Positions 21,311-61,700 of a DNA stretch of 64,000 nt are shown piece after piece; within the stretch, counting starts at the first letter, position 1, and every line of letters starts with the position of its first letter. The notes under the pieces were generated by a model. It was given only the letters and a program-made list of their open reading frames with translations. It was not told the DNA's origin and did no database searches. This DNA is from Escherichia coli. GTDB taxonomy: Bacteria; Pseudomonadota; Gammaproteobacteria; Enterobacterales; Enterobacteriaceae. Location: assembly GCF_003334255.1 (NCBI RefSeq), contig NZ_QOWU01000004.1; one strand, given 5' to 3'. The translations under genes and the position numbers were made by a program.

Positions 21311-21330
21311 TCCGTGATCAAAATCACCTC
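21311..21330. promoter_or_regulatory. CRP-like binding site in the ppiA-tsgA divergent region
   Basis: cGTGAtcaaaaTCACc fits TGTGA-N6-TCACA; 14-bp palindrome GTGATcaaaATCAC. Confidence 0.5.
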
Positions 21331-22808: not shown

Positions 22809-22821
22809 TATAAAGGTGAAT

Positions 22822-22835
22822 TTGATTTACATCAA
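22822..22835 (+). promoter_or_regulatory. FNR box of the nir promoter
   Basis: Perfect TTGATttacATCAA (TTGAT-N4-ATCAA) ~60-70 bp upstream of nirB start. Confidence 0.85.
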
Positions 22836-22893
22836 TAAGCGGGGTTGCTGAATCGTTAAGGTAGGCGGTAATAGAAAAGAAATCGAGGCAAAA

Positions 22894-50855: not shown

Positions 50856-51634
50856 CAGTACGCCTTCCCAAGCGCCAGCCCCAGCGCGATGGCAAAGTCT
50901 CCACCTGGCGGCGGTAGCGGCGGCTGACGAACAGAAACGGCCTCCCAGGGATCAAATCCGCCTTCGCCACATATCGCGACGCTTTCGGGATCAACGGATA
51001 ACGCTGCCGCCAGCTCCTTCGCGCTAGTCATCCCCACCGCCAGTTTGCGCCCCCAGCTATAGCGCGTCGCCCACAGCCACTGTTCGTTATCACGCCAGGC
51101 CAGACATTGCTGATGAGAAGGTAAAAAAGGCAGGAATCGCTGTAATGCACTGGCATCCGGGGTGATCGCGCTCACATGAACACGCAACCTTTCTGCCAGA
51201 GTAAGCAGCGTTGCCAGCTCTTTGCTTTGCGCGGCAGTCACGTTATAGGCGGGACTGAGTGAGTCTTCGCTGTAATCGAAGCGCAGGGAGTCCGGATCCA
51301 TATCCAGCTCGCGGGCCATCGTCCCTGACAGCCAGGCCGTTTGCTCCCGCTCACCAAGGGACATCGACGGGCGCGGAAATGACCGCTGTAATGTGCGACT
51401 GGCGGGAAACGCCAACATAATGTGATGACGCTGCGGCAGTTCGCGACTCCACGGTAACAACGTTTTAGCCAGCTGCTGCGCATCAACAATCCGCCCATCT
51501 TTGATAATGTCGTTCTCCAGCGGCAACCGCCACCAGCGTTGCAAAAAGCATTCTTTTGCGCCCCGCACGATCGCAACCGCTACCGCTTCTTGCTGTTGTA
51601 AATGCAAACCAATTTGCCAGATCTTAAATGCCAT
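50855..51634 (-). CDS. hofM: PilM-like (actin-fold) protein HofM (259 aa)
   Basis: Track ORF 50855..51661 trimmed to ATG 51634 preceded by AAGGAG (MAFKIWQIGLHLQQQEAVAVAIV...). Confidence 0.85.
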   Translation of the reverse strand: MAFKIWQIGLHLQQQEAVAVAIVRGAKECFLQRWWRLPLENDIIKDGRIVDAQQLAKTLLPWSRELPQRHHIMLAFPASRTLQRSFPRPSMSLGEREQTAWLSGTMARELDMDPDSLRFDYSEDSLSPAYNVTAAQSKELATLLTLAERLRVHVSAITPDASALQRFLPFLPSHQQCLAWRDNEQWLWATRYSWGRKLAVGMTSAKELAAALSVDPESVAICGEGGFDPWEAVSVRQPPLPPPGGDFAIALGLALGKAY

Positions 51635-59597: not shown

Positions 59598-61322
59598 TCA
59601 CTCATTCAGATTCACATTCAGCCTTTCACCATCCACTACAAGATCGCGCCACGCTTTAGGCTTCGTCCCCAGTTTTCCATCCTTCGCAGCTGTGAGTAAT
59701 TTTTCTTTCGTTATTTCGTTCGGAAGTAAACTCATATCAAGCGCGTCCCATTCTTTTCTGTCTGAGTCAAAGCCATAGACAATGACTCTGTCATCATTAA
59801 AAGCAAACAGGATCCGCTCCGCCTGACCATCACTATTCAGATCTTGCTCGACCAGGACGCAGGCGTCTTTTTCAATACAGGTCATCACGTTATAGCGATC
59901 CTGGATTAAGGCCGACCAGAATGTCGCATCAGGTTTAACAGAACCAGGGGCAATTAACACATTATCGGCTAATACTTTTTCCGATACCTGTTGCTGAAGA
60001 TGTTGCTCTCCATCTAACGCCATCAGCAGATCCCGCGCGCGTTTCGGGTCTTTCATAAACCCGGCATCGCTTTTCAGCGACTCAAGCGCAGCACGTCCAT
60101 AGCGACCGCTCTGCTCGAGCATGTAGATAGTTACCTGGTCTGACGTGTTTTTGCCGCTCTGATAACGCGCCATATGGCTGTTCACGCTAATGCGCATACT
60201 GTCCAGCACCGGCGAATTAAGAAGCACCAGTATCACCAACACCAATAACGAAACCGCAAGGTTCACTTTGCCCTGAAGAACAACGGGATTTTGCCCTTTA
60301 CGCCAGACGATGCTGACAAAATACCCCAGCGACCACACCAGTAACACCAGCACCGCCAGCACGCCCTGCAAGCGGTCGACAGTCCAGCCGTACTGAGCGA
60401 CCCGCAGCCATAACGCCCAGGCGGCGACGAACACATACAGCGGAGCAACCAGCAAAGCGGTTTTAATCAGGCAACGCAACGGCCCTGTCCAGGGAAGTGA
60501 CGCTTTTTGCGGATCGCGGACAATAGCCATTAAGATCAATTGCAAAAAGGCCAGCGTCAACAGCAACCCGGCGGCGGAGATGTGGCGAGAAATCGCGCTC
60601 AGGCCCGTAAACGGCAGGGTGATGATAAACATCAGGGTTAGCAATGATACTAACGGCAGCAACCCCGTGGCGATTAACGTGAACAACTTTTGAATAGAGT
60701 CGATTAAACGTGACTGTGTTCGCGCGAGGATCACCGCCAGCGCGGTAACCAGACCTAACGTGAGATAAATAAACCAGTCGGTTGCAAAAAAGAGCGTATT
60801 GAAAAACGTGATGCCAACAAGTTTAAACAACTCACTCCACAGTAAAAGCACCAGCCACGTCAAGCCATTGGCGAGAAAAATCACCAGTAATATAAGTACG
60901 TTATGCCATACTGACTGGTAAAAATAGCGATAGCGGCTACTGTCATTGCGGATGCGAAGGCTTTGTTGTATCCACGGTAGCAACAACATTGCCATCAACA
61001 GCAGATAGCAACCAAAATCCCAAAGCGCCTTTTCAGCTCTCCAGGGGTTCATGCCATCAGTTTGCCACTTCAGCCAGCCGCTCATCCCCAGCGTGGCAAT
61101 AAACACTAGCGCCAGCCATCCCCAAAGGCGCTTCTGTTTAAAAGAGATCACGGAGAAGAGTAAAACGGATGAAAACGCGACGGTCGCAGGCACGCCATAA
61201 ACAATCCAACTGTGATTTTTTCCGGAAAGCCAGGCGATCAGCAGGTAGCAAACCAGACCCTGAAGTAATCCGGTAGCAATCATCCCCCAGCGTGTTGCGG
61301 GTGAAAGTTCAACGTTATCCAT
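59598..61322 (-). CDS. yhgE: Large polytopic inner-membrane protein YhgE (574 aa), function unknown
   Basis: ORF track; many hydrophobic segments plus a hydrophilic C-terminal domain. Confidence 0.85.
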
Positions 61323-61564
61323 GTTGGTTATCCAGAATCAAAAGGTGGGTTAATTATCGCATCCGGGCAGTAGTATTTTGCTTTTTTCAGAAAATAATCA
61401 AAAAAAGTTAGCGTGGTGAATCGATACTTTACCGGTTGAATTTGCATCAATTTCATTCAGGAATGCGATTCCACTCACAATATTCCCGCCATATAAACCA
61501 AGATTTAACCTTTTGAGAACATTTTCCACACCTAAAATGCTATTTCTGCGATAATAGCAACCGT

Positions 61565-61584
61565 TTCGTGACAGGAATCACGGA
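61565..61584 (+). promoter_or_regulatory. CRP-like site in the pckA promoter region
   Basis: tcGTGACaggaaTCACGga fits TGTGA-N6-TCACA, ~125 bp upstream of pckA start. Confidence 0.45.
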
Positions 61585-61700
61585 GTTTTTTGTCAAATAT
61601 GAATTTCTCCAGATACGTAAATCTATGAGCCTTGTCGCGGTTAACACCCCCAAAAAGACTTTACTATTCAGGCAATACATATTGGCTAAGGAGCAGTGAA

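Follow-up and report, generated by a model that had tools for sequence, protein, structure and literature searches.

PEP carboxykinase, encoded by pck (pckA), catalyses the committed step that leads from the TCA cycle to gluconeogenesis, and the catabolite control of this step is textbook material. CRP-dependent promoters have been assigned to several classes. In class I promoters, CRP occupies a distal site, for example at -61.5 in lac P1, and synthetic or natural sites are found near -72.5, -82.5 and -92.5. In class II promoters, a CRP- or FNR-dependent site is located at about -41.5, to which class III promoters add a second site near -90. Sites from which CRP represses were described to lie downstream of the target promoters (Shimada 2011).

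For E. coli, pck was identified as a direct target of cAMP-CRP by genomic SELEX, and its promoter activity, determined with lacZ, was shown to drop in a crp mutant (Shimada 2011, PLoS One 6:e20081). In Table S3 of the same study, two boxes are listed for yhgE< >pck, TGCGATTCCACTCACA at 3.53061e6 and CGTGATTCCTGTCACG at 3.53071e6. In ETEC, a CRP ChIP-seq peak was identified at yhgE/pck and assigned to TGTGAGTGGAATCGCA (Haycocks 2015). In a review citing Nakano 2014, one CAP site is described upstream and one downstream, and the promoter-downstream CAP is stated to repress pck at very high cAMP-CAP. It was further shown that the pck promoter responds to added cAMP with activation only in the presence of Crp; in that work, the reported repression of pck was ascribed to the overexpression of Crp, and the physiological effect of Crp-cAMP was argued to be activation (Kochanowski 2017).

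This report deals with the yhgE/pck spacer in a stretch of 64 kb of E. coli DNA, which was analysed as a whole and is called the window here. In this spacer, an earlier note had flagged a palindrome as a CRP-like site. The palindrome is a genuine cAMP-CRP box which has been catalogued previously and is not new. The result re-identifies published operators and adds nothing new on the regulation of pck. However, it contains one correction, namely that a gene under catabolite control may have a CRP-like palindrome nearby which does not activate it, because the position of such a site relative to the start decides the sign.

The yhgE/pck spacer and its CRP boxes

The ORF list and the mapping of the MG1655 annotation place the divergent spacer at 61323-61700. 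The gene yhgE is encoded on the minus strand with its start codon at 61322, and the ATG of pck (pckA) is located at 61701, as mapped from the MG1655 annotation (pck 3532818). Window positions were obtained by subtracting 3471117 from the MG1655 position. The region 61183-61883 is identical to positions 3532300-3533000 of E. coli K-12 MG1655 (701 nt), and a 601-nt query across the spacer was found in all complete E. coli genomes searched (5426/5426), with yhgE and pckA/pck flanking it. The gap of 378 bp between the two divergent genes, as given in the earlier note, was confirmed, and so were its AT-rich stretches: the GC content of the spacer is 37.6% compared to 52.4% for the window, and homopolymer runs of T6, A7, T6 and A5 are present. 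For the comparison between species, pck loci were fetched from 80 species and 14 Enterobacteriaceae spacers were aligned, while the presence of CRP boxes was scanned in 12 fetched Enterobacteriaceae loci (L001-L011 and L021). Two CRP boxes are present in the spacer:

61464..61479 (centre 61471.5), no strand assigned: CRP box-1, TGCGAttccacTCACA, at about -90.5 from the predicted distal start, an activating position
61567..61582 (centre 61574.5), no strand assigned: CRP box-2, CGTGAcaggaaTCACG, at about +13.5 from the predicted distal pck start

The flagged palindrome, tcGTGACaggaaTCACGga, is found in the spacer and corresponds to box-2. As a 19-mer it extends over 61566-61584, so that the span of 61565-61584 reported for it before was off by one; the 16-mer CGTGACAGGAATCACG covers 61567-61582. 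After coordinate conversion, the positions of both pck boxes in Shimada 2011 are those of the two sites in the window, and the box CGTGATTCCTGTCACG is the reverse complement of box-2. The motif TGTGAGTGGAATCGCA assigned by ChIP-seq in ETEC (Haycocks 2015) is box-1. Two sites which are 103 bp apart cannot be separated by ChIP-seq, and the occupancy of box-2 in vivo is putative.

Whether box-2 exceeds chance expectation depends on the criterion: by loose matching it does not, while by the exact core or by a position weight matrix (PWM) it does. The sequence CGTGA-caggaa-TCACG fits TGTGA-N6-TCACA at 8 of 10 positions, and the GTGA/TCAC core is exact. When up to two mismatches to TGTGA-N6-TCACA are allowed, 31 matches are found in the window compared to 25.6 expected; at this level there is no enrichment, as would be the case if the palindrome were a chance match without function. 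In contrast, the exact core GTGA-N6-TCAC is present 6 times in the window, with 0.84 expected. A symmetric CRP PWM was derived from 149 published boxes (part 1 of Shimada 2011 Table S3, the pck region not being included), and its chance expectation was taken from Markov-shuffled sequence. With this matrix, box-2 obtains 12.2 bits and ranks seventh among about 64,000 positions; compared to the training boxes, its score falls at the 60th percentile. Scores of this kind are expected by chance about 2 times per 64 kb and about 0.012 times per 378 bp. The PWM scan, which had been proposed as a check in the earlier note, supports the palindrome as a CRP site. In the alignment, the half-sites of box-2 show an identity of 0.79 and 0.81, compared to 0.68 for the central 6-bp spacer and 0.61-0.64 for the flanks. 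The site is also catalogued as a CRP box inside the genomic-SELEX CRP target region. A chance match is refuted by the catalogued box, by a PWM score far above chance for 378 bp and by half-sites conserved beyond their flanks, and this reading retains next to no probability. The assignment as a CRP-like site held on the same three grounds, the listing in Table S3 of Shimada 2011, the PWM score and the conservation of the half-sites.

Box-1 has one mismatch to TGTGA-N6-TCACA and reaches 12.7 bits (rank 5 in 64 kb). It is absent from the earlier note and scores slightly above box-2. Its half-sites are conserved with identities of 0.90 and 0.99 in the alignment, and of the 12 Enterobacteriaceae loci scanned, 11 contain it. 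Box-2 is kept in 8 of these 12 loci and is degenerate or lost in the other 4 (Enterobacter cloacae, Superficieibacter, Enterobacter sp. Ag1 and a soil MAG), which fits an auxiliary operator of lower priority. Wherever both boxes are present, in seven loci and in the window (8/8), the distance between their centres is exactly 103 bp.

Elsewhere in the window, the top matches of the matrix include documented CRP sites at ppiA/tsgA (21313-21328, identified by SELEX and ChIP-seq) and inside hofM (51161-51176, identified by ChIP-seq). The matrix also selects an FNR-like palindrome, TTTGATTTACATCAAT, at 22821-22836 upstream of nirB, which we take to be the nirB FNR site; CRP and FNR-type palindromes can therefore not be separated with this matrix. 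A further CRP-like palindrome, CGTGAGCATCTTCACG, is located at 32848-32863 in the frlD-frlR spacer, with 12.0 bits and rank 8. Among the published CRP entries covered by the comparison, CGTGAGCATCTTCACG was not seen.

The distal promoter and the sign of box-2

According to the published description, the start is flanked by the two boxes, and the promoter should therefore be located between 61479 and 61567. The features of this part of the spacer and of the pck leader are:

61417..61428, plus strand: Cra (FruR)-like operator TGAATCGATACT, fitting the consensus TGAAWCSNTHHW
61505..61527, no strand assigned: conserved block TTAACCTTTTGAGAACATTTTCC, at about -57 to -35 of the distal promoter, identity 0.80 compared to 0.61-0.62 in its flanks
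61547..61555, plus strand: extended -10 element TGcGATAAT of the distal pck promoter, as read from the sequence, between box-1 and box-2
61688..61703, plus strand: Shine-Dalgarno sequence AAGGAG and pck start codon, invariant in the alignments, with the ATG at 61701

In 12 of the 14 Enterobacteriaceae, the extended -10 element reads TGCCATAAT or TGCGATAAT, and its identity across the 14 genomes is 0.91. Judged from the position of this element, transcription of pck is predicted to start at about 61562, 7 nt after the -10 hexamer, which would result in a 5'UTR of about 139 nt. With a start at 61562, box-1 would be located at about -90.5 and box-2 at about +13.5. In the abstract of the Nakano study, CRP box-1 is reportedly placed at -90.5 and box-2 at +13.5, with a higher affinity of CRP for box-1; gel-shift and AFM data on the binding of CRP at pck are also said to be part of that study. 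The 103 bp measured here are in exact agreement with these two positions (90.5 + 13.5 - 1). A canonical sigma-70 promoter was not detected in the spacer by a consensus scan, and both candidate promoters, the distal one and the one discussed further below, are without a good -35 element. No start-site entry for pck was found in the supplementary data of three genome-wide studies (Kim 2012, Ettwiller 2016, Latif 2018). By Term-seq, an RNA 3' end was identified at position 3532767 on the plus strand of MG1655 (Adams 2021). It corresponds to 61650 of the window, 51 nt upstream of the pck ATG. Plus-strand transcripts must accordingly run through the region downstream of box-2, with a start located upstream of 61650. 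This 3' end is located within a run of C residues and does not follow a U-run, and could result from processing or from premature termination in the leader.

In E. albertii (L001, 1100-1500), the pck leader from the extended -10 element to the ATG is nearly identical to that of E. coli, while the sequence upstream of the Cra-like site could not be aligned. This indicates that the constraint stops sharply at the edge of the regulatory region. On its minus strand, the block at 61505-61527 has a possible resemblance to ArcA-type direct repeats.

The centre of box-2 is situated 19 bp downstream of the extended -10 element and not at an activating position, whereas box-1, about 90.5 bp upstream of the predicted start, is located as in class I promoters. 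The palindrome is thus quite probably the lower-ranked of two cAMP-CRP operators of pck, which at about +13.5 would cap expression of pck at very high levels of cAMP-CRP. From box-1, in a class I-type arrangement, CRP would recruit RNA polymerase via the alpha-CTD. At moderate levels of cAMP-CRP, box-1 would be filled and pck would be switched on. At very high levels, box-2 would also be filled, over the initially transcribed region, where bound CRP would hinder open-complex formation or promoter escape and expression would be capped. The spacing of 103 bp to box-1 is invariant, while that between box-2 and the palindrome further downstream (box-3, see below) drifts between 55 and 57 bp, which argues that box-2 belongs with the distal core promoter. 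The repression via box-2 may be marginal in vivo, since it was seen with overexpressed CRP and Kochanowski 2017 argues for activation. The net effect of CRP on pck is activation.

The earlier note had proposed a catabolite-activated control of pck with multiple inputs. For the gene, catabolite activation stands, as pck is activated by CRP-cAMP. For the flagged site it does not, because a position downstream of the predicted start makes it the wrong site for activation. The multiple inputs could be substantiated at the level of the gene, by the effects of Cra and CsrA on pck given in the literature. Cra was shown to activate pck in vivo, and a Cra site at pck is known from in vitro work, but was not seen by ChIP-exo. 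The consensus of the Cra operator is TGAAWCSNTHHW. The corresponding pattern is found 3 times in the window compared to 2.3 expected, which is the chance frequency, so that the match at 61417-61428 on its own is no evidence; the site is conserved as GTGAATCGAT in 7 of the 14 Enterobacteriaceae.

[quoted passage not shown] This effect would be explained if the palindrome acted in the RNA, as a 5'-terminal stem-loop with GGA in the loop and hence as a CsrA-type site. With a start at 61562 the palindrome would be transcribed (+6 to +21), CGUGA and UCACG could pair with CAGGAA as the loop, a second GGA is present at 61582-61584, and a third one is part of the Shine-Dalgarno sequence. In most close relatives, the loop reads CAGGAA, CAGGAG or CTGGAG. 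However, in two species the centre of box-2 is completely replaced (GATGCGATTC and GACCATACTC), leaving no GGA between the half-sites, while the GTGA/TCAC arms are retained. This is the pattern of a DNA site for CRP and not of an RNA element which depends on its loop. The hairpin is also absent from the minimum-energy folds, which were computed for the first 35 nt and for the whole leader, and the stability was not better than that of shuffled sequences (z = -0.11 and -1.39). Using RNAalifold on 12 leaders, no covariation was detected (covariation term +0.36), and there was no match in Rfam; a scan with a permissive E-value returned a single hit, the OppA thermometer, which with 9.3 bits compared to a gathering score of 290 is noise. 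In the text of the CsrA CLIP-seq paper, pck is not mentioned, and many gluconeogenic genes are described there to change without CLIP peaks. A CsrA-type site in place of the CRP operator is on this evidence very unlikely.

A second role in the RNA would be that of an intrinsic terminator or attenuator, formed by the palindrome and the following T-run directly at the 5' end of the pck transcript. A consensus scan identified a terminator-like element at 61563-61592, in which a stem of 9 pairs and a loop of 6 nt precede TTTTTTG. However, only 3 of the pairs are G-C and three are G-U, the stem is not the minimum-energy fold, and the number of hits in the scan is at the level of shuffled sequence (1 compared to 0.5 expected). 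The T6 run is found only in E. coli and E. albertii, while other species have TTTTCC, TATTCA or AATT-C. In a look-up covering 61483-61682 of the window and the gene name, the sole Term-seq entry found for the pck leader is the one at 61650, with none near 61590. Intrinsic terminators are characterized by a stable, G+C-rich hairpin and a conserved U-run, and the palindrome has neither, which leaves the terminator reading with hardly any probability. The capping operator for cAMP-CRP remains the preferred assignment of box-2.

Box-3 and a candidate proximal promoter in the 5'UTR

A third palindrome is present further downstream, together with a -10-like hexamer:

61624..61639, no strand assigned: box-3, CRP/FNR-like palindrome TATGAgccttgTCGCG, half-site identity 1.00/0.96, inside the 5'UTR
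61662..61667, plus strand: -10-like hexamer TACTAT (TACAAT in most relatives), identity 0.93, 22 nt after box-3

Within the spacer, conservation is highest for box-3 and the hexamer TACTAT/TACAAT. The best-conserved elements, which are box-3, TACAAT and the block at 61505-61527, differ from those with published functions. In E. coli, box-3 obtains 6.4 bits with the CRP PWM, compared to about 8-10.5 bits in other Enterobacterales and Aeromonas, where it is present as TTTGATAGCTATCGCT and similar sequences. The gap between box-3 and the hexamer is fixed at 22 nt in the Enterobacteriaceae, and amounts to 20 nt in 11 of 13 other Enterobacterales and Aeromonas, with 21 nt in Brenneria and in 'Klebsiella sp. 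BIGb0407'. The module was identified in Yersinia, Serratia, Photorhabdus, Pectobacterium, Brenneria, Rahnella, Budvicia, Arsenophonus and Aeromonas, in the form T[TA]TGA-N6-TCGC[GT], a gap of 20 nt (21 nt in Brenneria) and TACAAT. In the genomes outside the Enterobacteriaceae which contain the module, the pck ATG and the terminator of the upstream gene are only about 150 nt apart. An additional CRP-like site (10.2-14.4 bits) precedes box-3 by 49-50 bp in Serratia, Budvicia and Arsenophonus. In the alignment, this site corresponds to E. coli box-2, which in the Enterobacteriaceae is located 55-57 bp upstream of box-3.

Compared across these genomes, box-3 and TACAAT look like an ancestral promoter of the class II/III type, dependent on a member of the CRP or FNR family, which is now contained within the 5'UTR of E. 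coli pck. Box-2 might then be, or originally have been, the upstream partner in a tandem-CRP, class III-like proximal promoter consisting of box-3 and TACTAT, and would activate rather than repress. The conservation of box-3 and the hexamer at the top of the spacer is in agreement with this, as is the near-fixed gap of 20 nt across other Enterobacterales and Aeromonas. The terminator of the upstream gene leaves scant room for another promoter in those genomes, and the sites of Serratia, Budvicia and Arsenophonus fall at about -90 and -40.5. However, E. coli box-3 has only 6.4 bits, and the PWM, which also picks the nirB FNR site, cannot tell CRP from FNR-type sites. The spacing of 55-57 bp between box-2 and box-3 is variable, while the distance of box-2 to box-1 and to the distal -10 element is invariant. 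Relative to a hypothetical proximal start at about 61674, box-2 would be located at about -99.5, out of phase and off the face of the helix used by upstream CRP sites. In addition, the -35-like sequence TTAACA has a spacer of 15 nt and was not picked up by the promoter scan. An activating role of box-2 at a proximal promoter is accordingly doubtful.

A related possibility concerns the origin of the arrangement. The 5'UTR might contain an ancestral second promoter, with box-2 being orthologous to its site at about -90, and the acquisition of a new distal promoter might have turned box-2 into a repressing site. From the comparison of genomes, this is conceivable but rather unlikely. If it were true, the Enterobacteriaceae would have placed the extended -10 element and box-1 just upstream of box-2, by which a formerly activating site would have been converted into a repressing operator downstream of the promoter. 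Box-2 would then be a switch between two promoters, damping the distal one and perhaps helping the proximal one.

Two further candidates in this region were rejected. A long-range helix between box-2 and box-3 was obtained with RNAalifold; it shows no covariation, and CRP-like palindromes are mutually complementary by construction. An upstream open reading frame of 24 aa extends from an ATG at 61625 to a TGA at 61699, which leaves 1 nt between its end and the start codon of pck. It probably does not encode a leader peptide, because it is without a Shine-Dalgarno sequence, its frame is broken by a 1-nt indel in other genera, and it contains an early stop in Citrobacter.

Comparison with known CRP-dependent promoters

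The site flagged in the window and CRP box-2 of the E. coli pck promoter (Shimada 2011) have the same sequence and the same genomic position, and are the same object. The module of box-3 and TACAAT, together with the site 49-50 bp upstream, has in other Enterobacterales the same geometry as class II/III promoters. In E. coli, however, box-3 is weak (6.4 bits), and the spacings are 33 and 57 bp and not about 32 and about 50 bp.

Like the sites of class I promoters, such as lac P1, box-1 is located upstream of the start, about 90 bp from its predicted position, in what is likewise an alpha-CTD arrangement. Box-2 differs from these sites in that it is located downstream of the predicted start. 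This geometry is shared with the group of talA and fbaB, which are repressed by CRP (Shimada 2011). In contrast to that group, pck is also activated by CRP from box-1, and with activation from box-1 and repression from box-2, the output of the pck promoter would be dose-dependent and not one of simple repression.
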